Positions 5,691 through 37,549 of a stretch of DNA of 64,000 nt are shown here, one piece after another. The translations under genes were made by a program, and so were the position numbers. Numbering within the stretch: the first letter of the stretch is position 1; every line of letters starts with the position of its first letter. The stretch comes from Nemertoderma westbladi. Taxonomy: Eukaryota; Animalia; Xenacoelomorpha. The notes beneath the pieces were generated by a model. It was not told where the DNA came from. It did no database searches and saw nothing but the letters and a program-made list of their open reading frames with translations. The DNA is taken from NCBI GenBank assembly GCA_032718475.1, contig JAUCBJ010009018.1, positions 1,096-65,095 on the forward strand. Reading direction: 5' to 3'.

Positions 5691-5700
5691 CCGCTCCCAG
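5691..5700 (-). promoter_or_regulatory. Polypurine tract of element A
   Basis: CTGGGAGCGG immediately before the 3' LTR TG; identical to the site in element B. Confidence 0.75.
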
Positions 5701-5768
5701 AAAATGGGATTTAAGTCTATAAAATATACAAAATCACAGTTTCTCAAATACGAAAATACTCTAAACAG

Positions 5769-14344: not shown

Positions 14345-14900
14345 ATATTACGCTACCCGCACAGAACACTCAAACAAATACAAACCAAAACGCTGGCAGA
14401 CTACTATCAAGCCTAAACAAACTACAGTATGTGCAGATTCTGAAACTGTTAGTTAGTATGCGTTCTAACACGGTAGTACGACTTACTCTTTAAGAGGGGA
14501 TTGACCTTACCGCTTATGGCTGCCCCAACTTACTAACGGCACTTGATCAGACCAACTCTACACACGCAGCAATCCCTTCAGACCTAAAAATAGCTAGACA
14601 ACAATCCAGCCTACAAATATTTGAGTAATAACTATTACGGTACCTGAACAGACCACACAAACAAACACAGGCTAAAACACTGGCAGACTACGATCAAGCC
14701 TAAATAAACTACAGTATATGCAGACTCTGAAACTGTTAGTTAGTATGCGTTCTAACACGGTAGTACGACTTATTCTTTAAGAGGGGATTGACCTTCAGCA
14801 TATGGCTGCCCCAACTTACTAACGGCACTTTATCAGACAAACTCTACACACGCCGTAATCTCTCCAAACTCAACAACAGTCAGACAGCAGCTCAGCCTAC
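14345..14900 (-). repeat. ~290-bp tandem duplication in the 5' leader of element A
   Basis: ctggcagactac...tgaaactgttagttagtatgcgttctaacacgg...aactctacacacgc occurs twice; equivalent to 20408..20970 in B. Confidence 0.85.
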
Positions 14901-15338
14901 AACTATCTGAACAATCTGAGCAGGGTCACACGCCTTCTGCTCAATATTAGCCTACTAGGAAATAAAACCGACAGAAATAGGTAAAATCTCAATAAAAATT
15001 CAGGGCTGCAGTCCCTGATTAAGTACTAAGACCCACCAGTATACAATAATCAAATCGAATAATACTAAATGTACTTGTACAGCAGTACCGGTACCGGTGA
15101 TGACAGTTAGGCCTACTGACCTACAAAGTACCGGTTCAGTTTTACCAGTCACTACGGTATTTTGCAACCTTATTGCCTACTGCAATAAGATTATAAACTG
15201 TTACTGTTCGACAGAACAGTATTAAACTGTATTTAATGCTTACACTGCAATACAAAGTAACTGTTACTGTTCGACAGAACAGTATTAAACTGTATTTAAT
15301 GCCTACACTTGCAACCTTATTGCCTACTGCAATAAGAT

Positions 15339-15350
15339 TATAACTGTTAC
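15339..15350 (-). promoter_or_regulatory. Atypical primer-binding site of element A (complementary to LTR 16092..16103)
   Basis: Minus-strand GTAACAGTTATA directly after the 5' LTR, with no TGG. Perfect complement of TATAACTGTTAC inside the LTR. Confidence 0.7.
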
Positions 15351-16584
15351 TGTTCGCGCTTTTGAAGACCTTTAGCAGTTTAACCTGCCAAAATTTATAT
15401 GTCTTTTAGTTAATTAACACACCTTTAGCATACGACAATATTTTATGCTAATACGCAAAACATTAGCCGAAGCCAGCCCATGCGCGATCATTCACCCGAT
15501 GGATCTACACCCGGGAGGCTGAATTCGGATGCTTAGATTTTATTATTGCAGTGTAAGGTTGCAGTGTAAACCTATTGTATTATTCGCTAGATCATTAATA
15601 TGTAATTTCTGACAGATATTATTAACTTTCGGGAAATATTAACAGTTCCTTTAGGACGTGGCGCTCTATCTATTTAAACAGAGCTGGGACTTATACTAAA
15701 CGCAACGATAAGGCTTATGATTAAAGTATAAGTCGCATTCTTTAGGAAATGCTTTGTTACCAGTCACATCACACTCACAATCATGCACACTATTCTGCCG
15801 ACTGTCAGTATATTTGATCACACATAAAGAGAACAGCAATTGACTCAGGTAGTGTCTACTAAATAACATTAGATTCAATACACACCACATTGATATAAAT
15901 CGCAATTGTTATATATAGCCCGCCTCTCTAACCTGTAGTGTATCAAGAAAATTGGGAATTTTGGGTGATTTATCCGTATTCTCCAAAGAGCAATATTTCC
16001 ATCAACAAATAGATACAATTAATAACTGACGGTAAATAGCAGTACAAACAATATGATTAGTGCAGTTAAATTAAGTGAGGTAACACCGCCGGTAACAGTT
16101 ATACTTTCTATAATCTAAGCAGTTTTACTAGAGTTCTTCCCAAAAAGCCGGTGTTTCTGGCTTAGACAGCAATAACAACAAAGTATCAAGTAAGGCAGTA
16201 AGACTGAACACTCTCCTTATGATCGGCTGAAAAGCTACACGTCGACAGGAAAAATCGCTCTGATTGGCTCAAGCCAAACAAAGAACTATGCGTCCAATGG
16301 CTGTTTCCATGTCAGCAACCAGCTGTTAGATGTCGTAATATGAATCATCACGGCTAAGCTGTGAAAGGTAGTTGGTGCATTACAGGTTTTTTGCCTTACC
16401 ATGTCCGCCAAAACACGTATATAGCAGAATGACTTTTATGTCCGTTAAAACACCTGTAACGGTACCTTGCGGGCGAGGGGAATATATATACAGTTAGAGA
16501 ACCTTTTTAGAGTATTCCAGCGCCTGGGGGGAAACTGGATTGCGAAGCAAAAGGGGCCAGTTATATCCCACAGAAGCTTTTACA
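15351..16584 (-). repeat. 5' LTR of element A
   Basis: Direct repeat of 4457..5690, bounded by TSD GATTG. Confidence 0.97.
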
Positions 16585-18420: not shown

Positions 18421-18534
18421 TAATAATATTTTCAACCAATAATGCCTTCAACAACAATGCTGTAGATTGAATTGAAGATCCCGCTAAAAAGGTTGTACTT
18501 TTATTACCAGTATTATTTAGCCAATCAAAGTAAA

Positions 18535-18793
18535 GTTAGTAAGTCGTTCGCACGAGTTACTAAGTCGTTCGCACGACTTAGTAAGTCGTTCGCACGACTT
18601 ACTAAGTCGTTCACACGACTTAGTAAGTCGTTCGCACGAGTTAGTTAAGTCGTTCGCATGAGTTAGTAAGTCGTTCGCACTACTTAGTATGTCGTTCGCA
18701 CGAGTTAGTTAAGTCGTTCGCACGAGTTAGTTAATTCGTTCGCACGATTTAGTAAGTCGTTCGCACGACATACTAAGTCATTCGCACGAGTTA
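18535..18793. repeat. 21-22 bp minisatellite (agtaagtcgttcgcacgactt), about 12 copies
   Basis: Head-to-tail units without unique spacers, followed by the palindrome tttaggggctccgta-c-tacggagcccctaaa (18821..18851). Confidence 0.92.
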
Positions 18794-18943
18794 GAGAACA
18801 CTTTTTTTTCCTCATGTCCCTTTAGGGGCTCCGTACTACGGAGCCCCTAAATTTCCACATATATTTAAACATTTAACTAATAATTTACCGGATCAACCTC
18901 ACCAAGTCGGAACTCTTCTTTCTCGAGGAGGAATCTCCGGAGT

Positions 18944-20119
18944 TGTAAAAGCTTTTGCGTCATTAACCGGTTATTTTCCCTTAAAGTACTCTGTAGTTGG
19001 TTTGCCAGGCATAAAAAGGCCATGTCCTTGCTTTACTGGTGTTTTAGAGGACATAAAAGTCATTTCTTCTGTATTTGTACTGTATTTGTACTTTAGAGGA
19101 CATAATCCGTAATCTCGTGACGCGATAAGCTAGATACTCTTGAAAACAGTGTCGCTACCATGACGACGGCTAACAGCTGATATTGCCACGTCGACGTTTC
19201 TTTGTTTCTTTGTTCTCTCGTTGTTCGGTTGACCAATCAGAGCGTTTTTTGTCTCTGTGTTGGAGGTGTATACAGAACTCAGTAGTTCAGTGTTTATGTT
19301 TTTGCTAGAGCCTAAGAACATCGGCCTTTGGCACCTACGTATATCAGCATTCTTTAGCTTTACATTAGTAGGCTTAATTATAGAACGTATATCTGTTATC
19401 GAAACATACTAACCACAAGTTAACTCATTCACTTAATAATCATTTATACATTAATATTACTGCTTTTACTGTCGGTTATTCATTATATTGGTTGATGAAA
19501 TATTATATCGGAATACTGATCAATAGTCAGACACCCCACCTTCTTGATATACTAAAGGTTAGAGAGACCGGTTACAGATAAACGATTGCGACCTATGTTG
19601 AGTGGTTTGAAGTGAATCTAATGCTATTTCATATGCCCAACATAAATTGTCTGTTGCTCTCTTTATACGTGACTAAATTTAGTGAAGGTCGGCAGATTAG
19701 TGTGCAGTATTGTGCAGCATTGTGTATGAGTGTAACTGATAACAAAGCATCTCCTAAAGAATGTGCCATATACGTTAATCTATAGCCTTTTCGTTGTGTC
19801 TAGTTTAAGTCATAACTCTGTTTACATATTTAGAGTGCCACGTCCTAAAGGAACTGTTAATATTTCCCGAAAGTGAATAATATTGGTCAGAGATTATATA
19901 TTACGATCAGTCGAATAATACGGTAGGCTTACACTATCAATCATTAAGCTCCGAACTCAGTCTCCCGGGTATATCCAACGGGTGAATGATTGCGCATAGA
20001 CTGGCTTCGGCTAATGTAGTGTATCAAATACTCGTCATAAAGCTAAAGAATATATATCATCTAAAAGACATTCTAATTTTGGCAGGTTAAACTGTCAAAG
20101 GTCTTCAAAAGCGCAAACA
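18944..20119 (+). repeat. 5' LTR of element B
   Basis: TGTAAAAGCT...GCGCAAACA; about 8 differences from 36375..37549 counted by eye. Confidence 0.97.
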
Positions 20120-20130
20120 ATAACAGATAT
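20120..20130 (+). promoter_or_regulatory. Atypical primer-binding site of element B (complementary to LTR 19389..19399)
   Basis: ATAACAGATAT directly after the LTR, with no TGG. Perfect complement of ATATCTGTTAT inside the 5' LTR. Confidence 0.7.
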
Positions 20131-20407
20131 TGCTTCTGGATTGCGGTGTAAGCAATCTAGTCGAAAGTACCGGTCGACCGGTAACCAGTAGGCCTGACTG
20201 CCTGATCATCCGGACCGGTACTTACTTACAGTACAGGTACAGCAGTATTATTCGATTGTGGTATTGTATACCGGTAGGCTGTTTAAGAGATTAGGGACTG
20301 TACACCCCTTGTTTCTTTTGGAGCTTATTTATTTCTGTCAGTTTTATTTATTTGTAGGCCAGTATTGAGCAGAAGGCGTGTAAGCCTGCTCAGATTGTAC
20401 AGCTAAT

Positions 20408-20970
20408 TTGTAGGCTTGACTGTTGGCTAACTGTTGATTAGGTCTGAACGGATTGCAGTGCCTGTAGAGTGTATGTCCGATAAAGAACGGTTAGGAAGTA
20501 GGGGCAGCCATAGCTGTAAGGTAAACCCCCATCTAAAGAATAAGTCGTACTACTGGGTTAGAACGCATACTACTTAACCATTTCGGAGTCTGCATGTCCT
20601 GTGGTTTATTTAGGCTTGATAGTAGTCTGCCATCGTTTGGTCTGTACTCTGTTTGTGTAGTCTGTACGGGTAGCGTATAATTTTATTTAGATAATTTGTA
20701 GGCTGGATAGTTGTCTGGCTGCTGTTGTGTTTGAGGAAATTTCGGTGTGTATAAAGCATCTGTCCGATAAAGAACGGTTAGGAAGTAGGGGCAGCCATAG
20801 CTGTAAGGTAAACCCCCATCTAAAGAATAAGTCGTACTACTGGGTTAGAACGCATACTACTTAACCATTTCGGAGTCTGCATATACCGTAGTTTGTTTAG
20901 GCTTGATAGTAGTCTGTCAGTATTTGGTCTGCATTTTGTTTGAGTAGTTTGTACGCGTAGCGTAATATTT
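20408..20970 (+). repeat. ~290-bp tandem duplication in the 5' leader of element B
   Basis: gtccgataaagaacggttaggaagtaggggcagccatagc...ttcggagtctgcat occurs twice. Confidence 0.88.
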
Positions 20971-22304
20971 ATTATTCAGAGTTTATGCTATTATTCGCAA
21001 CATTCATATCCCCAAGTTTATTCCTACAGTAATTGTGTTTGTTATACATACCGTTATAGTTAAACTAACCCCGGTACTATACGGGCTGCTTGGCGTAGGT
21101 AAAGACTGGTGATTTTGTGCACCGGTCACTCCAGCAGATACCGTGGTTCTTTTGGCTGTTCAAGTATTTTTAACTACTAATTATTTGTTATACAAGTACT
21201 TGTACCTAATTTAGGGTTTAGTGTACAGTGCTTTCCGAAAGCAATTAGTGTGTAGGCAGTGTATTTGTGTTGTAAAGTGGTTAATAGGCACGTTGGTTCT
21301 GGTAGACCGCGGTAATTAACTTCTAGGTAGGGACACTCCGTGATACATAACGTAGTACCTATAGCGATACGGTTATAGGTCGTCAGGCGGTGGTATTTTC
21401 CTATCTGGACAGCGCAGTATATTTACTACTACTTATTATTTTCAAATACCGTAGTAACCTGTCCGTTGTAATAACCAGATATTCTAACCCTTTGTTAGGC
21501 TGGTTAGTAGACTTCTTGTAAAATTACCCTAAAAATTTGTATTTGTGTATTTGTAATTAAATTTTTGTGTTTATTTAGAGATTGTAATCTCAACCCGAAT
21601 TGTACGTAATTTGTAGTATTAAGTAACTTAGGTAAATTAGAATTATTTGTTTTAGTGTCCAACAAGTAGCACTCCACTGAGAGCGCACAGCTTATGTGTA
21701 GTGACTCCCCCAGAAATAATAACATTTATTTCAAACATTGACAAAACCCATTAAACGGGTATATATATATTATAAATCAACTCAAACGATTTATAAATAG
21801 TAGGCCTGCCATATAACAATTAGGTCTCAATATCAGTTGGACTACTGCTTGAATAACGGTAATAAAGTAAGTTAAAGTAACCAAGTAACCCTTAAAATTC
21901 AGAAATTCAATTATTTAAAATAATTGATATACCGGTATTTACGATAGGCCTATTATATATTTATATACTTGTGCTGAAATCATACCGGTATTCTGTAATT
22001 AATTCTAGTCTGTAATTATACTTATATATATACATTATAAGTGTAAACTGCATACCGGTATCCACGATAGGCCTATTATATATTTATATATATTTGTGCT
22101 AAAATTATATACCGGTTTCTGTGAAAAACCTAGTCTGTAATAATACTTATATATACCATAAGCATACCGGTATACTAATATATTATATATCACGCTACAC
22201 TGAGTAGCAGTATCGGTAATTAATTACTAGGCTAGCAGTTAATACTGAATTACTAGACTTACTTAGACTGTAATAGCAGTAGACATTCAACTGTGTAAAC
22301 AAAC

Positions 22305-25300
22305 ATGTCTGATACTAAGCAGAACCTGTCAGACAGTTTATTAGATGAAACTATCTGCGACTCAGATAAGGGTGTAGAACCGTCTAGTCCTAAATTCAGT
22401 TCACCTCCCACTGTGAGGAAAGTCATCCCTCCAGTAGTAATAACAGAACCTAGGTTGGTCCAACATCGTAGGTCTATCATAGGCACTCGAGCTCAGGTCA
22501 AGCGGGACCAAGAAGCAGCGGAACAGCAACAACCCGCGAGCCAAGAACTTATTTCTCAGCGGCCCGACAGCTCCAGTAGTGAAGATACTGTAGAACTGAC
22601 ACCCGAGCGCGGAGCAAAGATGACGGATGCGATTTATTCGGATCCCCTTCTCATCCTTCCTGCAGCCGTACTCACTAGGTTATTGATCGCGGTGGAAGAA
22701 CACCAGATCGATTGGGCGAGAAGTAAGCGATCCACTAAAGATCGTTATGAGGGATACACAAGGGAAGAGCTGAAGTCTATGGTCGAGTCGCAATGGAACT
22801 TCCCCGGACCCGGACTCCCATTTGATTTATCAGAAGCTGCCTGGGAAGACATACACCGGATGGGAGTAGCCAAGGAAACCATCGATCCAGCTGTGTGGAA
22901 GAGGTCCGCAGCCGGATACGCACAGGGATTCTTCAGCTCTATGGAGCGAGTAGAAAAACAACTGTTTCAACAACCTCAAGGACCTCAAGAGCAGGGACAA
23001 CTGCTTTATCAAGTTAGAGAAAGAATTCTGCGAATCAGGCTAATATTATCAGCCTTTGAAGAGGCTTCTAAAAGAAGACAAGACACGTCGTTGCAAGTTG
23101 CCGTAAAGACTTGGTTTCAACGGGTGAGTCGCCAGGTTCAAGGAACAGCTTAGTGGAAAGCTCAGCTGGAGGAGCGCTCAACCCATGGAGAATCAACGGA
23201 CGCTACTTTTTCCCAAGTGGAAAGTGAAGCGACGGCAGAGAAACCGCATAAGAGGGATGCCATTGACATCTATCTGTCAGACTATCAGCGTTTTTTGGGA
23301 GATGAAGAGTTGAGGAGAAGGCTAGATGGACTTAGCCCTAATAGTGAAGGAGCCCAGCATGTGTTGGATGCAATTGATGTGGATAGGTTAGCGGCGAACC
23401 AAGCTAAATTCGATGAACAACTCCGCATCGCTAGAGACCAAGAAGAACAAGTAAAGAAAAAACGTATAGAAGATAGAAAGACAGCGGCAGTGGCAGCAGC
23501 AGTGGCAGAGGCCGAAGCGGAAAGAAAAGCGGCAGCAGCAGTGGCAGCGGCAGAAGCTGAAAGAAAAGCGGCAGTGGCAGCAGCAGCGGCAGCGGCAGAA
23601 GCGGAAAGAAAAGCGGCAGTGGCAGTGGCAGTGGCAGAGGCCGAAGCGGAAAGGAAAGCGGCATCGGCAGTGGCAGAGGCCGAAGCGGAAAGAAAAGCGG
23701 CACTGGCAACAGCAGAGGCAGTGGCAGAAGCAGAACGGAGGGCATCTGAAGAGGCAACCCAACTAGAGTTGGAAAATCTTCAAGAGAGGCAAGACAACTT
23801 CAATAAACAGTTAACAGCTAGTAATATGCAGATGATGAGTCGATCTACTCCCAAAAGACAGGGGTATACATCATCTGAGGAAGGCGATACTACCGATCCT
23901 GAAGGCGGAGGAAATCGATCTCGCCTAAGCAGACGTAAAAGAATGTCCCACCGTCAAAAATTGCCTGATTTGCTTCCAGCTGTTAGAAGGCAACTAAATA
24001 ACACCAACTTAGGTAGTACAGAACCCACAGACCAAATAATTACAATAGAGAGACTCCCTACTATAGTAGATGAGCCTGAAATAATTAGGTCTGTTCCCGA
24101 AGCCACCCTTTCGGTCGTAGAGACACCTGTACTCCCTGAACCTACCTCTCAATTCCCTTTGCACAGCACTAAGCTACCTGTGCCCAGCAGAACAGCCCAT
24201 GAGACAGTTCATGCCCTGGACTCCGAGCGAAATATTCATGATTTGTCGCCCGTTGTCCCTCGTCCGCCCGCTACAACGTTGGTGAATCCCGCTTCGGCGG
24301 TTGAATGGGTGGATGAGAGACGACGGGGGATGGATCTCCTGCTCGGACAGATGCAGGAGACCGTTCAGCAATTCAAGGGCACAGTAAGGGAAAGTAGGCT
24401 AGAGTTGCAAGAGGTGCAGCAAAGTATCGCGCTAGAACGCGATAAATTAGTAAATGCACAAAAGGGTATACCACCACCCCCTGTAACTATAGGGTAATTA
24501 TAGACCTGTTGATAATGATATTCCCTATAGACCGGATCATAATCCGAGAAATTTATATACCGATAACTCGATATTAAATAACACGATGGCCCAAGAAAGT
24601 TTTACGCGTCAAATGGCTAGAACCGAAGCCCGGCAAGCGGTAAAGGTGGGAGAGATCGTCAAGTTCAATGGAGATGAGATGAAATGGTTACCTTTTAATG
24701 AATATTACAAAGATAACATACAGAACTCCGTGCTATCTAATGGAGAGAAACTTAGATTCCTCATCGAGTGCTTGGAAGGATCTCCCAAGTTAATGGCGTT
24801 AAAGTTTATTGGACATCCAGACGGATTAAGATAAGTTTGGGATACACTAAACATCAGGTATGGTAATAGGAATAACATAGCTGGGTATTTGTATGCAAAG
24901 TTGGTAGCGCCCCGAAAGTTTATTAGCAGCGGAATTATAGAGTTTTCCGATGAGATTCAGGAGATCTGCAGACAATTAGATTGGCTAGGTAAGTCTCATG
25001 AGTATCAGAATGCTATGGTTATTAGAGCAGTGGCTTCTACTTTACCGAAGGGTGGAGTAGGTACACGCTGGGATAAGAAAGTGCTATATATGATGGAACA
25101 ACAACGACGAGACCCTACCATGGCTGATCTCATGTCATTCCTAGATGGAGAAGTGAAATTACAGCTCCTGAAACTGTCCAGAGAGAAGACACCGGAAAAC
25201 AAGGTAAGTGAAAAACCCGTCGCTAGGAGAAAGGTAACCCCAGTGTGTTATACAGATGATGGCGAAAGCCAGACTTCTCAAGGAGAAGATAGCGGGAAAG

Positions 25301-26488
25301 ACACTGATAGATCTTATTACGTAAATAAAATGCCTAAAGATCAGGTAAGTAAATTCAAGTCTCGAACAAATGACAGGAGAGAACAGGTAAGAAAAACTCC
25401 TCCTACGTCTCCCAAGAGAATTCAGGTGAGAAAGCCCGAAGAAAAAACAAGTGTACACAATGTTACACAGAGTAAGGTAAGTAACATCAAACCGAAATGT
25501 GTGCTATGTGATGGGACCCATCGCTTAAATATGTGTGATGAATTTCTAAAGAAATCATTAACTGAGAGACGTGAAGTCATGTGGGACAAGCGGTTGTGCT
25601 ATAATTGCCTCAGACAAGGACACCAACGGCGAACCTGTTACTCTGACACAAGATGTGCCAAGTGCGGTGCGAAACATCATATCTTGTTGCACACTGAATT
25701 CGAGCGAAATAGTCTGAGTCAGGTAAGTGATTCCGAACTACATGTCCAATTCAGTGATGTGAACGACACTGATCAATCTGAGATGGAAGGATTCTATACG
25801 GACGAGTTCTCCGACGAAAACGAATCCTGTTACATGATAAATACCACAGTGTATCGAGCACTCATCTATGAAAAAGATACAGACATTGACCTCGCTCTAA
25901 CCACTTCTGATCGACAACCATTTTGGAAAGCGCCAACTTCCAATGTAGGGATTAGAGAATTTCCTGTGGTACAGGTAAGGGTCCACGGACCGAAAAGGAG
26001 TTATGTAGTGAACGCCCTCCTTGACTCCGGTAGTACAGGAACATTCATCGACAAAGAGCTAGCCAAAGACATATTCGCTGGACAACCCAAGTTCCGAACT
26101 AAGCTAAACATGTCAGGAATTATGCAAGTTTGGAAATCCACAGTAACCGCGGATTATTATGTAGGTGCGTTGTCCACCCCCCAGGACGAACTAGGAGAAC
26201 ATAGCATAAGGTCAGTGAAAATTGTGGCTATAAAGAACTTCGCTACTACTCAAGCAGACCTTTATAATTGGGACGAGGATGAGAGCATCCAACATCTTAA
26301 GATACCTCGATTCCAGACAGATTATCCTGGAGTGCAAATACTCATCGGTCAAATGCGCATGAAGCGATCGAGACGTTAGAGAAACGACCTGCTCAACCGC
26401 AACCTCTACAAGTTTATGCGGGAAGAACTAGAGTAGGTTGGTACTTTACTGGCCCTTCCCGTAGAACTCTAATGGAAAGATTACGGTA
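22305..26488 (+). pseudogene. gag: Disrupted gag-protease of element B
   Basis: Collinear with the Gag-PR of A but broken five times: in-frame TAG 23151..23153, ~110-bp deletion with frameshift at ~24490, CAA>TAA 24832..24834, 1-bp deletion at ~26353, and 5-bp insertion 26484..26488. Confidence 0.9.
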
Positions 26489-29400
26489 CCTAAAGAGCAG
26501 GTATACCAAGCGCGAGAATGGGAAGTTGAGAACAGTGAGTTCGACGATCCAACTGAGGGAACTCCATACTCCTCAGACAACGACGATATACATCAACTTT
26601 TTGATGAGAAGAATGCCATCGATCTCCTTAAGGAAAGCGAGACTTGGCAAAATCAAGTGAACTTATGTCAACTCCTTCTCCCATCTGAGCGAGACGACTA
26701 TAACGACGAGCTTAATGACGTCATTGAACGTTATAATGCCAAGACTCGGGATGAACACGCCGTGAGATTCTTTACTCAAGAGGTCGTAGATCCCAACTCC
26801 TACGATAAGGCCCTATCGGTGGAGGAAGAAAGAGCCAAGCAGATCCAAGCGATAACTACTCGTTTTCTTAAAGATCAAGGTAGGTATGAGATCGGACTTC
26901 CTTTCCGAAAGCGAGAACCAAAGTTCATTAACAACAGACCTTTGGCTGAGAAAAGAATTGCTCAACTACATCGACGCCTTACGGCAAATTCTTCAGCTAA
27001 AGAAATGTATAAAACACAGTTGAAGAAGTTTATTAGCAAGGGATATGCGGAGCTAGTACCGGAAGAAACACCCATAACTGAGAGAACGTATTATTTAACT
27101 CACCATTACGTTCCCAAACCCGGTAAACCCCATGAAGTACGAGTGGTGTTCGACGGCTCCGCCCTCTATATGGGCCAATCCCTTAATTCTGAATTGTTAC
27201 CCGGACCCAACTTACTCCAATCCTTGTTGGGAATATTATTAAGGTTAAGACAATACTCCATTGCTTTCGCCTCAGATATAGAAGGCATGTTCTTACAAGT
27301 CAAAGCGCTGGATAGGGATCGAGATAGCCTACGATTTTTGTGGTGGCCTGAAGGAGACCTCAATAAGAAACCGGTGGAGTACTGGATGACCATCCAAGCT
27401 TTTGGGATAATCTCGAGCCCTTCAAACGCCTGTTCCGTGGTGCGCACCACTGCGGATGACAACCGAGACGCCTTCTCTAAAGAAGTGATCGACAATATCA
27501 AACGAGACATCTACATGGACGATAATCTGAAGTCCCTTCCATCAGTCGAAGAAGCCATTGAGGTCGCTAAAGGAACGGTAGAATGCTTAAAGAAGGGTGG
27601 ATTTCGATTAACTAAATTCACCAGCAACTCCCGTGAGTTTCTGGAGTCGATCCCGGTAGAAGATCGAGGAACAAAAGACCTAGATCTAATAAAGGATGAT
27701 CTCCCAGAAACTAAGACCCTTGGTTTGAAATGGGACACAGAAATAGATATCCTGTTTTTCCAACTAAAACAGCGAGATAATCCAGTTCGGACTAAACGGA
27801 TTTGTTTAAGTATCCTGAGCACTTATTTCGATCCATTGGGATTTATTAGCCCAGTTATATTAATTGCTCGGAGTTTAGTACAACAAATGTGGCTTGAAAA
27901 CCACTCATGGGACGATCCACTTAAGGGAGAATTATTAAAGAAGTGGATGAAATGGGAAGATTCTCTACCAGCCATCGAAAACTTCATAATTTCCCGTTCA
28001 TATTTTGGTCATGTTCTCCCTACGTATTCATATCAACTCCATGTGTTTGGAGACGCCAGCGATATGGGAATCGGTATAGTAGCCTACCTCAGGGTGGAAA
28101 CTCCGGACGGAATTAAAGTCGCCTTGGTTACCTCTAAGGCATTAATAAACAACAAGTTGAAAGTTCCTCGAGCGGAGTTAAAAGCGGCTCTATACGCTAC
28201 AGCCATCAGCCGGAATGTAACAGAACAGATCGACTATCCCCTGGAGAAAATTGTCTATTGGACCGACGCTTTACTCGTGTTGGAGTATATAACCAATGAA
28301 GTCTGTCAGTTCAGCGTCTTCATTACCAACAGAGTAGCTATTATACTCAGTCGCACGACGATGGATCAATGGAGACATTGCCCCGGAACGATTAATCCAG
28401 CGGACATCGCTTCCAGGGGAGCAACTCCACAAGAACTGGTAGATACTCCAGACTGGTTAGGTGGACCCGACTTCCTCTACAAAGAAGAAGAAGAATGGCC
28501 TCCTCATCTTACTACAGCAGAAATTAGACAGGCCAAGGGAGCGGAGAAAGTCAAACCTAAAACTCAGGCGAGTAAATCGAAGTTATTCAAACCCACAGTA
28601 GATCTGTCTGTACTACATACTTCCGGAGACGACGCTTTGGATCAGAAACCCACAGCCACAAATAAACTCGTTGTGGAAATCCGTGATAAGGATTGGAAAT
28701 CTGGCATACCAGACGTCTCGCAAGGACTCTCACCCCTTCTGCAGAGAGCGATACATCACTACAGTTCTTGGAATCGGCTTTGTAAGGCCGTTACATATTT
28801 AAAGAGATGTTTTCACCATCACTACTCTGGGATGAAAACAAAGGGTGATACCGCTCCAATCACATCAGTGCAGGTCCATGTTATTAAAGACCTCCCTAAA
28901 TATAAGGTACCCGACAAGTTTCTGAAGGAGAAGATCAGTTATCAGGAGCATGAAGAAACCAACAAACAGTTGCTGAGACTCTTACAATGCTATGAAGATT
29001 CCGATAAGTATTTCCTGTTGTTGAGAAATCCACAGATGCGCTTAAGGGATCGTTTCTCTAGCACAATGATAGATGGGTTGATACGTGTTGGAGGAAGGTT
29101 AACGAATGCCCCATTATCCTTTGATACTAAGTTCCCCATACTCATTAGAAATCTTGAAATACAAGTCAAGATGATTGTAGATGTTCACAGCAAACTTTAT
29201 CATGCTGGTAGAGAACGAGTTCTTAGCGAAATTCGAACTCGCTATTATTTTTATAAACCCCGTAGAGCTCTGAACCAAGTTCTTAGGAACTGTATACCCT
29301 GTAGGAAAGCATTCAGTAGGCCTTTAACACAGAGAGAGGCAGAATTACCTAGGGAACGAGTAAGCTTTTATGAACCACCCTTTACTAATACCGGCGTGGA

Positions 29401-30397
29401 TTTATTTGGCCCTATTGAAGTATATCGTGCTAGGACTATAGTCAAGAGATGGTGTGTAATCTTTGTTTGTATGACTTGTAGAGCCATCCATCTCGATATG
29501 GTGAACGATTTATCTACCAACAGCTTTCTATTAAGCTTACGACGACAGATCGCTCGCTTTGGCACTAGTAACACGATGAGATCTGATAAGGGAACAAACT
29601 TCATTGGTGCCAACAATGAAATCAAAGCTTACGTCAAAGATTGGAACCAAAGACAGGTGGACGACCAACTACGAGTAACAGCGTCTAGTTGGACCTTCAA
29701 CGCCGCCGACGCCCCTTGGTGGGGAGGAAGTTGGGAAAGATTAATAAGAAGCGTGAAGACAGCATTTCATTTTATAGTGCCTTGCCGCGCTTATCTCACC
29801 GACGAACTTTTGCGGACGTTAATGGAAGAAATCGCCGCCTATCTCAACGAGAGACCGCTTATGCCAGTCTCATCGAGTCCCGATTCCCTGGAAGCGCTAA
29901 CACCCGCGCACTTCCTACTGAAGAAACCTGTAGCCATGCTCCCACAATCGGAAATCACAGACGGAGACGAATACTGCCGACAAACTTGGCAACTCATGCA
30001 GTTGTTATCCCGTCGTTTCGCTGACCATTTCGAAAAACATTATCTGCCCACGCTACAACTTCGAACTAAGTGGTTTGCGCAGCAAGAAAACGTCAGCGCT
30101 GGAGACATGGTGCTTATTGTGGATGTGGATCTTCCACATAAGCGGTGGCAGACAGGTCGTATAATCGAGACGCATATCTCGGATGACGGTTTGGTGCGAT
30201 CGGTAGAACTCGTCGTCATGCGACGTAACTTCAAGAAACCGGGAATTGTCTTCGAGACGCAGCAGCTCAATCGCCCGGTGGGACGTTTATGTTTACTGGA
30301 AAGAGACAGAGAACTCTCCGGAAACTATGGGAGACAAGATACTCTTCCCACGACCACCTCCCTAATCCAACAAACATCTAGGGACTCCCCAACTTAA
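26489..30397 (+). CDS. pol: BEL/Pao pol: reverse transcriptase, RNase H, integrase (open frame; no upstream in-frame gag)
   Basis: RT: VRVVFDGS, SDIEGMFLQV, YMDD. RNase H: LHVFGDAS, PRAEL, WTD, NPADIASRG. Integrase: HHCC plus GVDLFGP, RSDKGTNF, GGSWERL. Frame is open from about 26489; the ORF track starts at GTG 26657. Confidence 0.95.
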   Translation, partial: PKEQVYQAREWEVENSEFDDPTEGTPYSSDNDDIHQLFDEKNAIDLLKESETWQNQVNLCQLLLPSERDDYNDELNDVIERYNAKTRDEHAVRFFTQEVVDPNSYDKALSVEEERAKQIQAITTRFLKDQGRYEIGLPFRKREPKFINNRPLAEKRIAQLHRRLTANSSAKEMYKTQLKKFISKGYAELVPEETPITERTYYLTHHYVPKPGKPHEVRVVFDGSALYMGQSLNSELLPGPNLLQSLLGILLRLRQYSIAFASDIEGMFLQVKALDRDRDSLRFLWWPEGDLNKKPVEYWMTIQAFGIISSPSNACSVVRTTADDNRDAFSKEVIDNIKRDIYMDDNLKSLPSVEEAIEVAKGTVECLKKGGFRLTKFTSNSREFLESIPVEDRGTKDLDLIKDDLPETKTLGLKWDTEIDILFFQLKQRDNPVRTKRICLSILSTYFDPLGFISPVILIARSLVQQMWLENHSWDDPLKGELLKKWMKWEDSLPAIENFIISRSYFGHVLPTYSYQLHVFGDASDMGIGIVAYLRVETPDGIKVALVTSKALINNKLKVPRAELKAALYATAISRNVTEQIDYPLEKIVYWTDALLVLEYITNEVCQFSVFITNRVAIILSRTTMDQWRHCPGTINPADIASRGATPQELVDTPDWLGGPDFLYKEEEEWPPHLTTAEIRQAKGAEKVKPKTQASKSKLFKPTVDLSVLHTSGDDALDQKPTATNKLVVEIRDKDWKSGIPDVSQGLSPLLQRAIHHYSSWNRLCKAVTYLKRCFHHHYSGMKTKGDTAPITSVQVHVIKDLPKYKVPDKFLKEKISYQEHEETNKQLLRLLQCYEDSDKYFLLLRNPQMRLRDRFSSTMIDGLIRVGGRLTNAPLSFDTKFPILIRNLEIQVKMIVDVHSKLYHAGRERVLSEIRTRYYFYKPRRALNQVLRNCIPCRKAFSRPLTQREAELPRERVSFYEPPFTNTGVDLFGPIEVYRARTIVKRWCVIFVCMTCRAIHLDMVNDLSTNSFLLSLRRQIARFGTSNTMRSDKGTNFIGANNEIKAYVKDWNQRQVDDQLRVTASSWTFNAADAPWWGGSWERLIRSVKTAFHFIVPCRAYLTDELLRTLMEEIAAYLNERPLMPVSSSPDSLEALTPAHFLLKKPVAMLPQSEITDGDEYCRQTWQLMQLLSRRFADHFEKHYLPTLQLRTKWFAQQENVSAGDMVLIVDVDLPHKRWQTGRIIETHISDDGLVRSVELVVMRRNFKKPGIVFETQQLNRPVGRLCLLERDRELSGNYGRQDTLPTTTSLIQQTSRDSPT

Positions 30398-30954
30398 AAT
30401 GGCTGGAGTGGGTGTGTGACCATATTATTTTATATTTGTATTTGTTTTATTTTTATATTTATGTATGTATTATTATGTAATTTTATTTTAATCGTTTTAT
30501 TTAATTTTATTTAGTAGTATGGTATTTTAGAGATTATTTAGTAGATTAGTGCAATATATATTCGCGTTTATTATTTAATTACGTATATTATATATTTAGT
30601 GCGACGGCGAGAAATAATTATTTTTCTCTTTCCTTACTGTCCGTATCATATTATAAATACGTGACTACAGTAAGATGAAATCTTCGTACTTATTAAAGTA
30701 CAATAAAGCCACTACTATATTCAAGTATTATTGGTAGGCAGAGTATTAGGAATGCAAAGTTCAGATCCTCGTGTCTCGGCTAAACCAAGCTCTGGGTAGA
30801 CCTTGGAAACGACTTGCCTCTTCACACTGACATTGCTTCGTGCGATATTGCTCTCATACCGTATATTAAATAATACATATAGTAGCGTGATGTCCCTTTA
30901 ACAGTAGCGTATAACTAACGCAAAATAAATCTGTTAAACCCTTTGACCATCTGT

Positions 30955-31225
30955 AATTCTAGTCGATTAAGATATCGCGGCACCCACCGATATACTTGAA
31001 AGACAAATTTCTAGAATCAATGGTTAACGTCCCCAGACAAGTTCTGGAATAAACTGGTGCCCATCCTAAATATTAATTATTAATATTTACAAAAATCTGT
31101 CAAATATCAGGTCCTTTAAAATTCTAGTCGATTAAGATATCGTAGCACTTACCGATACTCTTAAAAGGACAAAATTCCTAGAATTAAGGATCCTATGTCC
31201 CCAGACCTGCTCTGGAATCAAATTG
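30955..31225 (+). repeat. Duplicated ~100-170 bp unit in the pol-ORF2 spacer
   Basis: aattctagtcgattaagatatcg...accgata...gtccccagac..tctggaat occurs twice; also duplicated in A (about 8030..8295). Confidence 0.8.
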
Positions 31226-32042
31226 TGTCTATTTAACATTAAATAATCAAATTTACGGGAATAAATTTAAATTCATATATTTCAATGAATTAATAAATTG
31301 TCATTTTATACAATTTATAACATTCCCAAAATTCCATTAATTAATAGATCATGGGAGCGGAGATTCACTCTATTAAGTGTATTTGTGTGCGAGAATCTCC
31401 AATGTATAGTCAATAGCCGATAAAATTCATAAAATCATGTATAAAGGGGATATTGACCATTAAAGAATTACTATTAAATAGCATCCCAGATCTGTATGCA
31501 TGAGAATTACCCTAATTCTACCGCTAGCTTTCCATAATGTCACCATGGCAACAACCACGCTAGAATTAGAAGTGAGTTAAAAGAACAATAGAAAGCATGC
31601 CCCATTGAATAGCATAGGGAATAAATAGCGCACTGCTAGTACCCAAGGATACATAATAAATACAGTGACATTCTGGAAGGTACTGACTAACGGACAAATG
31701 GCCCGAATGTGTGCAGTTTGTTGCAGTTGTGTTGAATTTGTGCGTTTGTAGGTGAATGTTACTACTAAGGTGTGTTTACAGTAGCGAGTCGCAATTGTGA
31801 AAGTAACCCTAACTCTCCAAGAAGAACCTGCAGTACATCTAAGCCTTTGGGACGGACAGTGAAGTGACTTGTGCCGGTTATCGTTGTCGTTGTGTAGCTA
31901 CATCGTTGGCGAAAGCACAGCGACGACGGTACATCGGCGCTGAGGATCTTACACTGTCCGGGGGCAAAAGAGGGGTAGGCAGCGACGCCTGCTAGCCTAA
32001 TATATATAAACTCATTATAATATTGATAAACTCATAGCAGAT

Positions 32043-35000
32043 ATGACTGAGTTGATAGAAGATGATCTTGGTATCAGGGAGCGATATACTCTACCTTTAC
32101 AAGCATTTGTCGATAGCTTGATACGCGGCGACGCTGGTCCAACTACTACGGAGGATGATGGTCGTTATATCGAACCGCCGATGTCCCCGGAGCAACTTAC
32201 GCGTGAATTGGACTATAGAAAGTTCACCGCTCGCTATACGCATCGTAATGGTACGTATATGGACTTCTTAACTACCGGCCACCCTATCGATTTACACGAT
32301 ACGGACGATGTGGATACCGAAAGGGAAATGGTTTTATTTAAATATCACACCCAACGGAATCGGAACGATAAGCCAAGAATAGAACACGAGAACTCTATTC
32401 GAAACAGACTCGAAAGAGAAGACGTTGAAGAGCCGGATAAACGCAACGACTTCAACGATTATCTGGAATTCTTGAGAGAAACATACCTCAATATTGCCAG
32501 TCAACAAAATCTCGAAACTCGATATCCTCAAGGTATACATCATGATCCTATGATAGAACTCAAGCGACTCTATTTCACTATGATGTATCTTACCGCCGAT
32601 CGACCGCTACCTGTTGTCCCAGATAGCTTCGAACAGATGGAGGAATATTGTAAAACTGGAGAACGATCACCCGCGTTTCCTCTGCAGGACATGCGTCTTT
32701 GGTATTACTGTGACGAATGCCCTAGACCCAATCAGCAAACGGAAAGACATAAACATCCGCGGAGACATTGCGCTAAACACAGTTTTACACGATATACTTA
32801 CGGGAGTTTCGAGCGAAACCTGTTCGACGTGTCCCCTGCGGTCGCTCGACTCAAGCGATCCTTGAACAAACCGATGATCAGAGTTCCGGAATACTCGGTC
32901 AGACCTCCGCATTCCTCAGTTAGACCTCAAACTCTTGACCCTAATAGTATCACGGATCCTCCCGAACTGTACTCACTGTTCAAAGATCTAGTGTTACCCG
33001 AACAGTTGATCGGTGGCACTCCGGTAGTAGGCTCACGAGACATTCGCCAACCCTACCTAGCTGGATTGGGACGTGGTCATCTAATATCGCCGTTTAACCC
33101 ATACAACCGTCCCGGCTTCACCTCTATCCAACCCGCTACGGAAGTCGAAGAGAGCGTCGTACGAAACGCATTAGACGCTATTCGGCAGAAAATCGGAAAG
33201 GGAACGTACGATTGTTTGGAGAAGCGTAAATTGCAGCAACAAGTCCAAGCGGTGAAGGAATTAGCTTTACCCCAGTTCGATAGAGAAATACAAAATCTCG
33301 AGGAGGACATCGAACGTGGACGAACCTACTCTTTACAAGAGTTTCTAGATGAGCGTCTACAACAACAAGCGGAGGAGAATCAGCTCGAGGAGAGACATAT
33401 AGAACTGGATGAGAGAGAAGAAGCGGCTTTAGCTCAACCCGAAGCGCAAATCCTTATGACGGATCTCTACTCTAAAACCATTCTTCATCCCTCGATGGTT
33501 CCCCATTTCGGAGACAAACTTTTTGCGACGGCACAACCCCAACCGGTTGATATCAACCTAAGATCTCGCGATCTTATCGCCGACGCTCCTCTGTTGCAGC
33601 GTCCGCCCATCGAACCCGCTCGTGTCGATGGTATACTCGTTGAACCTCCGGACAATAGAGCAGATCTTGTCCGTCGCATGGTACACGATGTAAACATACG
33701 CGCTAGACCTTTACCGGACTCGTTTTATGGGATCAAAGATCACCCTTATTACGTCAATCTAAAACAATATTACATGGTAAAACCGAAAGATCCTACACAT
33801 AGTCTGAAGTTTCTACCGTTAATAAATCCTCTCGATCTTGTCGAACTCGAACAACTGCAGAAACATCTGGATCAGTTAGTTAAAGTAAACTCGTTTCGAA
33901 AACCATATAATGTTTCCAGAATAGAGAAAGAAACAATACCTCCGTATAATCTTGATGGATTCATCAAAACTCGTTTAGTGCACTGGAATCTTGATGTGTT
34001 ATTCGAGGAGGAAAGAATACAACGATATGGAGATGTGGAAACATATACCACACAATGTTTAAAGTATAAAGACCTGCCTAATGCTAGCGAATGTGCTACC
34101 TTGTGGCATCCTGTGGGAATGACACTCGAAAACGCCACTAAAGAGTGGAACGAAACTCTTAACGTTATCGAGATGTATGGAGTTGTCACTTACGATAACG
34201 AAGGTAGCGTTCCGGTTGGAGAACTTGGAACTACGCGGATGATACACATACGAGGACTCGCTGGTTCTACCCACGTATTTACTCGAGCGTGTTCCGACGT
34301 TATTGATTATTCTTTTGAAACTCTTACTGAGATACAAAAGAAACTCCGACATGGACAATTTGAACTCGCGCAGCGTTACGTCACCGACACCGAGCGCAAG
34401 CCGGCTATGGGTATCGATGGATCGATGTTACCCCAACCCGTGCTCGAGATGCTGTTTAACGAAGGAATCCTTAAAATCGGCTCAGCTGTTTATGGAGACC
34501 TACAGAACGACTTTCGGAATATGGAGAACATTCCATACCCCTTCGTTGATACTCAGCTGATTGCTCCTTGGGCAGAAGGCCGAGGTTTCTTCCGCACTAC
34601 GTATGCCAATACACCCAGCGGAATTACCAAAGTACAACGAACCTCCATCGGACATCTTGCCTTTCAAGAATACGGATGGAATTTCAAGGTTGGAAATCCT
34701 ATAAATTACCAACAAGTATACGGAGATCATTATTCTCGTTTATACTTTGATGGACCATTGACCGCACCTGGCGCCGTGTATAGCTTTATGAGTGTTCCAC
34801 TTCGTCCCTCCTTAGCTATATACACGATCTTTGAAAACGCAGCACTTGCCGGTTGGCTAGCCGATGTGTGCAGTCGTACCATACGCGCCCATCCCTTAGT
34901 ACTTGGAACCAAACTCGCCAAGTTAGATGAACACAATAAATTCATCCGCTTTGAATGTTTCAAGCGCTTTCTGACTCCGTTCCGTAACGTTGATAGTCAG

Positions 35001-36296
35001 TTCAAGGACCGCGCTCTGACCAAACTCAGCCTGAGAGACTCAGCGGCGGAGAAACTAAACAGCGCGGGATTTGCCCTTTTTCAGGACGTTTGTATACAGA
35101 ACTTGCACTCATCTGTTATACAAAGACCCCGAATACCCACGGGTTATTCTGTCGTCGAAGTTCAGACAGTGGGTCCGCTTGCGGAGACAGCCGCACCTAC
35201 CTCAGCTATGCAATTGGAAGACGAACCAATATGCTTAGAAGCTGAAGCGATTCAACCTACAGCGCCCCGGAGCAGCGATAACGACTACGTCTTAGAGTGG
35301 TATCAAGGTCCACAATGTCTCACCGCATACGATTATCAACACGCTAACTATGTTTCTCGAAAACGTTGCCGATTATGCGCATCGAGAGACCATTTCACTC
35401 CTATGGACTCAGACGTACCCTGTTCCTACTTCCACGAACAACCAATGATGGAGATATATTGTGCGTATTGCAGAATTAATAACTCTCATATTTTTGCAGT
35501 CTGCCCCCAATTTATGACTCAATGCCATCACTGTCAACTTAAAGGACATGCCAGTTATAATTGCCCCTTTAATCACGATTTAGAGAGCGTAGATGAAATG
35601 ATTACCCTTCGCTACATCCGAGCTTGGGAAGCTAACGCGGATTTACACTGTGAGTCCCGTCATCGATACTACCCTGGACGCTCTTACGAGGGAGTTTACG
35701 CGTTCCATCCTTATTTATTAGCGTCTGTGGAACAAAAAACACGCATACCGAGTTACGAGCTAATGAAGCGTGTTGGTGAGTGTATTTCCACTAAATTTGT
35801 TAGAAGATACCTTAGGAACGTCAATCCTAACGATATTACTTCATACCATTTGATCAATTATATCCGTCAAGACCCGGAGTATGGCGATTTATTTATCAAC
35901 TCGCACCCTGAGTTACAGGAAGTATCTCGACGGCCCTACGAATATCGAGCCCGAGAACGCGAGCTGGAAAGAACTATCAAACCAAGGAAGTTTCTTACCA
36001 CCCACGGTCCGCCTACCGCCATTGCCCAGACAACCCGTCAAGGACCCGTAGGAGCTGCTGTCCTGAGGCGCGCCCTAAAGGCTGTTAGACCTCGCTCCAC
36101 GGAAGTTGATATCGATCAACCAGGTACCTCGACCGGCGGATACACCGATCGCAATCCGAAACCTTCTGATGCAATTGTATTGCACCCTTCACCCAGGAGT
36201 TACAGCCCTCCTAGTAAAGTGGCTCGCCCCAAAGAGAAAAGGACTCTTACTAGCCTCAAAAAACTGCGTAAACGCCGTCCGCGTAAGAAAGACTAA
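32043..36296 (+). CDS. Extra ORF2 of element B (1417 aa): DEDD(y)/WRN-exo-like 3'-5' exonuclease domain, Cys/His zinc knuckles, basic C-terminal NLS-like tail
   Basis: VVTYDNEG (ExoI), ILKIGSAVYGDL (ExoII), FVDTQ, SIGHLAFQEYG and YTIFENA (ExoIII-like). CRLC..H..C, CAYC..H..CP and CHHC..GH..C knuckles; LKKLRKRRPRKKD tail. Lies inside the LTRs. Confidence 0.85.
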   Translation: MTELIEDDLGIRERYTLPLQAFVDSLIRGDAGPTTTEDDGRYIEPPMSPEQLTRELDYRKFTARYTHRNGTYMDFLTTGHPIDLHDTDDVDTEREMVLFKYHTQRNRNDKPRIEHENSIRNRLEREDVEEPDKRNDFNDYLEFLRETYLNIASQQNLETRYPQGIHHDPMIELKRLYFTMMYLTADRPLPVVPDSFEQMEEYCKTGERSPAFPLQDMRLWYYCDECPRPNQQTERHKHPRRHCAKHSFTRYTYGSFERNLFDVSPAVARLKRSLNKPMIRVPEYSVRPPHSSVRPQTLDPNSITDPPELYSLFKDLVLPEQLIGGTPVVGSRDIRQPYLAGLGRGHLISPFNPYNRPGFTSIQPATEVEESVVRNALDAIRQKIGKGTYDCLEKRKLQQQVQAVKELALPQFDREIQNLEEDIERGRTYSLQEFLDERLQQQAEENQLEERHIELDEREEAALAQPEAQILMTDLYSKTILHPSMVPHFGDKLFATAQPQPVDINLRSRDLIADAPLLQRPPIEPARVDGILVEPPDNRADLVRRMVHDVNIRARPLPDSFYGIKDHPYYVNLKQYYMVKPKDPTHSLKFLPLINPLDLVELEQLQKHLDQLVKVNSFRKPYNVSRIEKETIPPYNLDGFIKTRLVHWNLDVLFEEERIQRYGDVETYTTQCLKYKDLPNASECATLWHPVGMTLENATKEWNETLNVIEMYGVVTYDNEGSVPVGELGTTRMIHIRGLAGSTHVFTRACSDVIDYSFETLTEIQKKLRHGQFELAQRYVTDTERKPAMGIDGSMLPQPVLEMLFNEGILKIGSAVYGDLQNDFRNMENIPYPFVDTQLIAPWAEGRGFFRTTYANTPSGITKVQRTSIGHLAFQEYGWNFKVGNPINYQQVYGDHYSRLYFDGPLTAPGAVYSFMSVPLRPSLAIYTIFENAALAGWLADVCSRTIRAHPLVLGTKLAKLDEHNKFIRFECFKRFLTPFRNVDSQFKDRALTKLSLRDSAAEKLNSAGFALFQDVCIQNLHSSVIQRPRIPTGYSVVEVQTVGPLAETAAPTSAMQLEDEPICLEAEAIQPTAPRSSDNDYVLEWYQGPQCLTAYDYQHANYVSRKRCRLCASRDHFTPMDSDVPCSYFHEQPMMEIYCAYCRINNSHIFAVCPQFMTQCHHCQLKGHASYNCPFNHDLESVDEMITLRYIRAWEANADLHCESRHRYYPGRSYEGVYAFHPYLLASVEQKTRIPSYELMKRVGECISTKFVRRYLRNVNPNDITSYHLINYIRQDPEYGDLFINSHPELQEVSRRPYEYRARERELERTIKPRKFLTTHGPPTAIAQTTRQGPVGAAVLRRALKAVRPRSTEVDIDQPGTSTGGYTDRNPKPSDAIVLHPSPRSYSPPSKVARPKEKRTLTSLKKLRKRRPRKKD

Positions 36297-36364
36297 CTGT
36301 TTAGAGTATTTTTATATTTTAGAAACTGTGATTTGTTATATTTTATAGACTTAAATCCCATTTT

Positions 36365-36374
36365 CTGGGAGCGG
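36365..36374 (+). promoter_or_regulatory. Polypurine tract of element B
   Basis: CTGGGAGCGG abuts the TG of the 3' LTR. Confidence 0.75.
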
Positions 36375-37549
36375 TGTAAAAGCTTTTGCGTCATTAACCG
36401 GTTATTTTCCCTTAAAGTACTCTGTAGTTGGTTTGCCAGGCATAAAAAGGCCATGTCCTTGCTTTACTGGTGTTTTAGAGGACATAAAAGTCATTTCTTC
36501 TGTATTTGTACTGTATTTGTACTTTAGAGGACATAATCCGCAATCTCATGACGCGATAAGCTAGATACTCTTGAAAACAGTGTCGCTACCATGACGACGG
36601 CTAACAGCTGATATTGCCACGTCGACGTTTCTTTGTTTCTTTGTTCTCTCGTTGTTCGGTTGACCAATCAGAGCGTTTTTTGTCTCTGTGTTGGAGGTGT
36701 ATACAGAACTCAGTAGTTCAGTGTTTATGTTTTTGCTAAAGCCTAAGAACATCGGCCTTTGGCACCTACGTATATCAGCATTCTTTAGCTTTACATTAGT
36801 AGGCTTAATTATAGAACGTATATCTGTTAACGAAACATACTAACCACAAGTTAACTCATTCACTTAATAATCATTTATACATTAATATTACTGCTTTTAC
36901 TGTCGGTTATTCATTATATTGGTTGATGAAATATTATATCGGAATACTGATCAATAGTCAGACACCCCACCTTCTTGATATACTAAAGGTTAGAGAGACC
37001 GGTTACAGATAAACGATTGCGACCTATGTTGAGTGGTTTGAAGTGAATCTAATGCTATTTCATATGCCCAACATAAATTGTCTGTTGCTCTCTTTATACG
37101 TGACTAAATTTAGTGAAGGTCGGCAGATTAGTGTGCAGTATTGTGCAGCTTTGTGTATGAGTGTAACTGATAACAAAGCATCTCCTAAAGAATGTGCCAT
37201 ATACGTTAATCTATAGCCTTTTCGTTGTGTCTAGTTTAAGTCATAACTCTGTTTACATATTTAGAGCGCCACGTCCTAAAGGAACTGTTAATATTTCCCA
37301 AAGTGAATAATATTGGTCGGAGATTATATATTACGATCAGTCGAATAATACGGTAGGCTTACACTATCAATCATTAAGCTCCGAACTCAGTCTCCCGGGT
37401 ATATCCAACGGGTGAATGATTGCGCATAGACTGGCTTCGGCTAATGTAGTGTATCAAATACTCGTCATAAAGCTAAAGAATATATATCATCTAAAAGACA
37501 TTCTAATTTTGGCAGGTTAAACTGTCAAAGGTCTTCAAAAGCGCAAACA
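36375..37549 (+). repeat. 3' LTR of element B
   Basis: Direct repeat of 18944..20119, followed by TSD GGAGT. Confidence 0.97.

Follow-up and report, generated by a model that had tools for sequence, protein, structure and literature searches.

What use does a retrotransposon have for a third gene that does not encode an envelope protein? The question is raised by element B, a long terminal repeat (LTR) retrotransposon of the BEL/Pao type found in a 64,000-nt stretch of Nemertoderma westbladi DNA (contig JAUCBJ010009018.1; hereafter the window). Its third open reading frame (ORF), ORF3, encodes a protein of 1417 aa with an exonuclease-like domain and a set of Cys/His knuckles. We tentatively propose, with slightly less than even confidence, that ORF3 is an accessory gene, maintained by selection in a BEL/Pao lineage, whose product is an RNA-binding 3'-5' exoribonuclease acting in trans, and not a proofreader for the reverse transcriptase (RT). 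Coordinates are positions in the window and residue numbers refer to the ORF3 protein. The parts of element B were as follows.

18944..37549, + strand: element B, full-length BEL/Pao LTR retrotransposon of 18,606 bp, delimited by its LTR pair and identical 5-bp flanks, GGAGT (target duplication)
18944..20119, + strand: 5' LTR, 1176 bp, TG...CA, with 7 mismatches and 1 gap relative to the 3' LTR
22305..26464, + strand: broken gag-protease region, located by tblastn with the open gag ORF of sister element A and by Pfam
26465..30397, + strand: open RT-RNase H-integrase frame of BEL/Pao type (Pfam)
30398..32042, + strand: non-coding spacer of 1.65 kb, ending in an AT-rich stretch and a CAG two bases before the ATG
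32043..36296, + strand: ORF3, 1417 aa, intact, no membrane segment (open frame; hydropathy; substitution rates against element A)
36367..36374, + strand: short purine-rich tract before the 3' LTR; identical letters precede the 3' LTR of element A
36375..37549, + strand: 3' LTR, 1175 bp, defined by the LTR pair

Element B was assigned to BEL/Pao because its pol frame matched PF05380 (E 8.6e-37), PF18701 (E 1.9e-19) and the integrase zinc domain PF17921 (E 4e-7) in the order RT, RNase H (RH), integrase (IN). The hallmarks of the group were present: LTR flanks with a target duplication, the order protease (PR)-RT-RH-IN, and the Pao-specific domains PF05380, PF18701 and PF03564, the last of which was matched in the gag of element A. 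The YMDD motif of the RT was intact. With LTRs that are 99.3% identical, element B is young, and it is unusually long for BEL/Pao. Its gag-protease region contained in-frame stops at 23151 and 24832 and frame changes near 24.5, 26.35 and 26.46 kb. These five breaks had no counterpart in pol or ORF3, despite an LTR difference of only 0.6%, and element A was the mirror image, with gag open and pol and ORF3 deleted; both elements may have moved in trans. Long internal non-coding regions (20120-22304 and 30398-32042) carried duplications of 287 bp and approximately 165 bp and were 80-90% identical in element A. The ending of the spacer before ORF3 also recurred there and, by its letters, could be a splice acceptor or an internal promoter.

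ORF3 lies between pol, which ends at 30397, and the 3' LTR, which starts at 36375, and its own end is 78 bp upstream of that LTR. An earlier note on this stretch had described an intact 1417-aa frame in this position and had argued that it was not an env gene, and both statements held. The frame was open from 32043 to 36296 and had no introns. Neither a membrane anchor (maximum 19-residue hydropathy mean 1.19) nor a signal peptide (judged by eye; the N-terminus is acidic) was present in ORF3, so that, as judged from the protein sequence, it lacks both defining features of an env gene and is not one. The N-terminal 680 residues had no family match; a further Cys/His cluster within them (32709-32771, residues 223-243) is possibly zinc-binding. 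Relatives of ORF3 were rare. A full-library search returned two among 1.84 billion representative proteins, three word-indexed protein searches returned none other than the protein P0002, and none was present among the viral contigs, prokaryote genomes and plasmids searched.

That ORF3 belongs to the element was indicated by a sister copy in the same window.

4457..16584, - strand: sister element A, internally deleted, flanked by GATTG; the LTRs, a pair of its own, show 6 mismatches over 1234 bp

In element A the gag ORF is open and most of pol is gone. Of ORF3 it retains residues ~1-125 and ~1059-1417 only; residues ~124-1058, and with them the whole exonuclease region, are absent, and the retained part is itself broken. 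Between the two elements, the ratio of nonsynonymous to synonymous substitution rates (dN/dS) of ORF3 was 0.065 over 92 N-terminal codons (dS 0.37) and 0.095 over 341 C-terminal codons (dS 0.87), and that of gag was 0.21 (1159 codons); dS between the elements reached 1.1. Both ends of ORF3 are thus under strong purifying selection, with dN/dS of 0.07-0.10. The earlier note had used element A to argue that ORF3 is a family component, and to that extent it was right; since element A lacks the exonuclease region, it supports ORF3 as a part of the family and says nothing on the nuclease. Other copies were found in public sequencing runs. When four runs were compared with element B, 17 of the 40 variants listed lay in ORF3, and 12 of these 17 were synonymous. 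A contig from run X4 covered 33747-34307, and with it the codons of ExoI; it showed 97 differences from element B but was free of gaps, so that diverged copies carry at least that part of ORF3. No RNA data set was listed as containing ORF3; one run may be RNA. The ORF3 junction of element A (32411 to 35216) recurred in runs X4 and X5. Internally deleted forms in the public runs had the junctions 32411-35216, 33404-36162, 33413-36142 and 28551-30268; deletion subfamilies have spread, since other runs share the junctions that element A has in ORF3 and pol.

Three parts of the ORF3 protein could be delimited.

34125..34877, + strand: DEDDy-like (RNase D/WRN-type) exonuclease domain, residues ~695-945, with candidate acids D718, E720, D819 and E931 and with Y927
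35367..35711, + strand: three knuckles of Cys/His type (residues 1109-1174), followed by a conserved motif that extends to ~1223, from alignment, profile and PDB matches
36225..36293, + strand: basic C-terminal tail, possibly a nuclear localisation signal, from the sequence; retained in element A

The knuckles (residues 1109-1174, 35367-35564) and the basic tail are where the earlier note had placed them, and the motif positions it quoted (D718, E720, D819, D836, Y927, E931) are correct. Within the ORF3 family no part was better conserved than the knuckle module, and it alone was common to all six proteins, with 13 invariant columns in an alignment (A3) of seven rows from these six. A knuckle profile built without the window row found ORF3 at E 2e-11, together with the remnant in element A, and PDB matches of the knuckles were NCp7 (nucleocapsid), Lin28 and Air2. 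By these alignments the triple-knuckle module is the constant core of the ORF3 family.

Residues ~695-945 are very probably homologous to the DEDDy exonucleases. When the domain region was used in an Atlas feature search, clusters of PF01612 made up 24 of 30 hits (score 0.93), and searched alone against NCBIfam it matched RNase D with E 0.015. A hidden Markov model (HMM) of 30 bacterial PF01612 domains matched residues 798-841 at 5.3 bits, a score reached by none of 1000 ORF3 shuffles; across the 622 frames of the window ORF3 was its best match, but at E 0.2. Against the same 30 domains, hhalign gave a probability of 44% for ORF3 and 79% for P0002, compared with at most 1.3% in 30 shuffles. 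A three-row profile, A2 (the ORF3 domain, P0002 and a second homologue, P0003), was run blind on 101 whole bacterial genomes and gave 23 matches at E<=1; the best 10 of these 23 were all RNase D-like ORFs. P0002 was retrieved with E 1.3e-6 from the 1.84 billion proteins, has an exonuclease-like N-terminus followed by knuckles in the same domain order as ORF3, and was 30% identical to residues 796-942 (pairwise E 1e-12). At approximately 25% identity to ORF3 it has the matching D-x-E, D, DTQ and Y-x-x-x-E, and its own Atlas search gave PF01612 clusters in 25 of 30 hits (score 0.94). The ExoII motif was present, with D819 and the DT motif D836-T837 in register in all alignments, and the ExoIII tyrosine, Y927, was invariant across a 32-row alignment. 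The domain therefore resembles RNase D, Rrp6, WRN-exo, EXD2 and Nibbler/Mut-7 (PF01612) in ExoII (K..G...D plus DTQ), in the ExoIII Tyr and in weak profile matches. Unlike the RNase D/Rrp6/WRN-exo group, it has a fourth acidic site occupied by Glu, carries insertions of approximately 30 residues relative to DEDDy exonucleases, and is fused to knuckles.

The placement of ExoI was less clear. In MAFFT alignments the ExoI position fell on D755 in all eight L-INS-i/auto runs and in two of four E-INS-i runs (read from the P0002 row), and on D718/E720 in the other two E-INS-i runs, both with a query starting at residue 680. D755 has no Glu at +2. D718/E720 are the likely ExoI residues because the Glu is preserved with D718, because local alignments of P0002 and P0003 fall there (with scores that are not significant) and because of the helices in a homologue-guided structure model, in which, at low confidence, a helix precedes 714-718 and a long helix directly follows 755. 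Profiles of ExoI only and of ExoIII only did not locate their motifs. The single-sequence AlphaFold model had a predicted local distance difference test (pLDDT) score of 30. For the guided model an alignment was chosen from 18 settings, with ExoII and ExoIII in register and ExoI nearly unguided. Its pLDDT averaged 54; most of the guided blocks scored 65-84 and residues 705-789 scored <50, so that ExoI is not placed by it. Foldseek with this model listed WRN, EXD2, NrnC, Nibbler and RNase D with a best E of 0.16, which is neither significant nor independent; the result is circular because the model was guided by homologues.

Relatives beyond this genome came from a metagenome scan, in which four knuckle-module loci were found among 141 candidates; together with P0002 and ORF3 these supply the rows of alignment A3. 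In one of them, L003, a BEL/Pao pol (PF05380, E 2.1e-44; 28% identical to the pol of element B) is followed by 1.7 kb of spacer, with a pyrimidine run and AG at its end, and by a 929-codon frame with the knuckle module. The other three had no pol on their short contigs. Basic C-terminal ends were found also in P0002 and L003. The ORF3-like stretches L003:3727-8209 and L004:615-3326, both with the knuckle module, were 25% identical over 778 residues, and both frames begin at a splice-acceptor-like pyrimidine run ending in AG. At L001:124-2022, the locus of P0003, a decayed exonuclease-like N-terminus is joined to two tandem knuckle modules; its contig of 3.7 kb has no pol. A conserved non-env third gene, consisting of the knuckle module with or without the nuclease, is thus present in BEL/Pao elements whose pol is 28% identical.

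Several observations weigh against reading ORF3 as an exonuclease gene of the lineage. The sequence signals for the nuclease domain are all weak and centred on ExoII, and searches of Pfam, NCBIfam and PDB sequences with the whole ORF3 protein returned no exonuclease; profile A2 likewise had no relevant match in the PDB. Since A2 contains two homologues, its blind RNase D matches are not attributable to ORF3 alone. E931 stands at the ExoIII Asp column, where P0002 likewise has Glu, and the canonical Y-x-x-x-D is absent; with Glu at the fourth acidic position the domain is DEDDy-derived (a DEDE set) and not canonical. The earlier note's DEDD motifs accordingly stood for ExoII, for the ExoIII Tyr and for the Glu at the fourth Asp, which P0002 shares; for ExoI the register depends on the alignment. 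Unlike in RNase D and Rrp6, no HRDC was detected in ORF3 with a profile from 10 RNase D C-terminal parts, which a distant HRDC could escape. The selection figures cover the ends of ORF3 and not the nuclease domain, and none of the 17 listed ORF3 variants fell within residues 695-945. P0003 retains only traces of the exonuclease domain, and L003 and L004 gave no exonuclease signal with the PF01612 HMM or hhalign, so that the wider family can do without the nuclease. Outside this organism, the BEL/Pao linkage comes down, on present alignments, to one locus, L003, and concerns the knuckle module and not the nuclease. The linkage to BEL pol in other genomes raised by the earlier note was accordingly found for a knuckle ORF and not for an exonuclease.

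Retroelements with DEDDy exonucleases have been described before. RNase D-like DEDDy ORF3s with a DEED motif are reported in PMC5408684 for the Juno and Vesta LTR elements and the Athena/Terminons of bdelloid rotifers, and PMC5718144 and PMC6431247 repeat this account. ORF3 of element B resembles those of Juno and Vesta, as far as PMC5408684 describes them, in being an RNase D-like DEDDy third ORF behind pol, in not being an env gene, in the replacement of one catalytic Asp by Glu and in the candidate roles. It differs from them in its BEL/Pao host and in having DEDE where the rotifer ORFs have DEED (PMC5408684). Its length of 1417 aa, triple knuckles and basic tail are undescribed for the rotifer ORF3s in the source passages, a comparison by description only. 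Dada DNA transposons also carry a DEDDy domain (PMC3706591, in part); they share a transposon-borne DEDDy exonuclease with element B and differ in being DNA transposons, in having the domain within the transposase and in four canonical DEDD residues.

We take Juno and Vesta to be gypsy-type, an assignment with which the GPY/F and Mag context given in PMC5408684 agrees. Within BEL/Pao, the ICTV profile (PMC8742986) gives Belpaoviridae genomes of 4.2-10 kb with gag, pol and env only, and an 18-nt tRNA primer site as typical. Element B matches that family in its LTRs, its gag-PR-RT-RH-IN order, its Pao-specific Pfam domains and an optional third gene (PMC8742986; PMC3118150, in part). Unlike the Belpaoviridae of PMC8742986, it measures 18.6 kb against 4.2-10 kb, has a non-env third gene and has no evident 18-nt tRNA site. 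The word 'exonuclease' is absent from the available text of the BEL/Pao papers PMC3118150 and PMC2774666. Full-text literature searches found no BEL/Pao element with such a domain; Repbase, Dfam and GyDB were outside their scope, so annotation there is possible. The earlier note knew of no described BEL element with this domain, but the idea itself has a precedent in the published DEDDy third ORFs of LTR retrotransposons (PMC5408684); the BEL/Pao host, the domain architecture, the DEDE signature and the defined knuckle module look new. BEL/Pao thereby joins the gypsy-type and Penelope-like elements as a carrier of exonuclease cargo, in keeping with the published idea that unrelated retroelements share a pool of DEDDy accessory genes. 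No assay of any retroelement DEDDy ORF3 is reported in the literature examined. The present ORF3 is a workable target for a first one because it is intact, belongs to a high-copy family and is under strong selection.

The domain is slightly favoured to be an active enzyme, and if active it would probably act on RNA. In the reading proposed here, ORF3 would be expressed from its own mRNA, spliced or internally started, as the acceptor-like spacer ends in elements B and A, L003 and L004 suggest. The protein would enter the nucleus by its basic tail and bind single-stranded RNA through its knuckles, and its nuclease would shorten RNA 3' ends or take them off, in a manner that can be likened to Rrp6, which works beside the knuckle protein Air2. 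The purpose may be to shield the long element transcript from host RNA surveillance or small-RNA silencing, a suggestion we regard as plausible yet doubtful. A broader proposal is unlikely: that large BEL/Pao elements include a wide, undescribed branch whose third gene has a new triple-knuckle RNA-binding module as its base, that some lineages of this branch have added an active DEDE exonuclease, and that the protein, a retrotransposon-encoded mimic of the RNA surveillance pair Rrp6-Air2, disarms host RNA silencing or matures the RNA primer of the element and so sustains a tRNA-independent retroelement of 18 kb.

The alternative that survives best, although rather unlikely, is a pseudo-nuclease, or an enzyme of weak activity, that does no more than bind RNA ends, in the manner of EXD1 or Maelstrom; ORF3 would then serve, by way of its knuckles, as a chaperone for RNA, an export factor or a decoy. 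The replaced fourth Asp and the large insertions would fit this, as would the decay of the domain in P0003 and the lack of a detectable one in L003 and L004, which leave the knuckle module as the sole feature common to the six proteins; inactive derivatives were also considered in PMC5408684. In favour of an enzyme, four acidic positions and the Tyr are shared with P0002 at ~25% identity, if ExoI is D718/E720, and rotifer ORFs with a D-to-E change, at another position, were judged possibly active in PMC5408684.

A role in primer maturation was also considered, since both elements have a candidate priming signature.

20120..20130, + strand: candidate self-priming site, 11 nt that directly follow the 5' LTR and are the complement of 19389-19399 within it

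In element B, 4 of 16,244 internal 11-mers have such an LTR complement. In element A, the 12 nt behind the 5' LTR are perfectly complementary to LTR position 482 (window ~16103), compared with 5 of 9,648 internal words with such a complement. The pairing differs between A and B at two positions and is altered on both sides, a compensatory change. Neither element has a TGG at the LTR edge, and in element B no 18-nt tRNA primer-binding site is evident there (host tRNAs were not compared). Self-priming in place of a tRNA primer is therefore a candidate mechanism, as far as base pairing can tell. ORF3 could then trim the 3' end of the self-primer RNA, or the plus-strand primer, before reverse transcription, and its knuckles resemble nucleocapsid. 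We consider this quite improbable: there is no sign that ORF3 is packaged, and in Tf1 the self-primer is made by RNase H without an extra exonuclease.

Among possible roles the earlier note had listed, beside primer maturation and anti-silencing, a nuclease that proofreads or trims cDNA and so permits an 18-kb genome, like the ExoN of nidoviruses. Element B is approximately twice the 4.2-10 kb given for BEL/Pao, and the top Foldseek rows, WRN and EXD2, act on DNA too (rows that are not significant and come from the homologue-guided model). ORF3 itself and non-coding spacers account for much of the added length, however, and LTR elements of 25-30 kb have been described with no exonuclease named for them in the available parts of the sources. 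Proofreading is ranked low, as very improbable, because the domain is in an ORF separate from the RT and beside RNA-binding-type knuckles, because its closest family-level matches are RNases (RNase D), and because it is undetectable in L003, a relative with the same layout of pol and long ORF3. That ORF3 is a recently captured host gene, or its motifs a product of chance, with no role for the element, is largely refuted: homologues number two among 1.84 billion representatives and many copies delete the ORF3 middle, but the two element copies, separated by a dS of up to 1.1, give a dN/dS of <0.1, the knuckle module occupies the same slot behind the 28% identical pol of L003, introns are absent and the blind matches were RNase D.

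Other features of the window lay outside the two elements.

40458-41954, - strand: intact 498-aa host-type C2H2 zinc-finger ORF with 11 fingers (Pfam)
1571-2182 (+ strand) and 54070-54900 (- strand): a pair of related reverse-transcriptase fragments of non-LTR type, matching at 96% across 393 bp
18497-18794: 21-bp tandem array just left of element B

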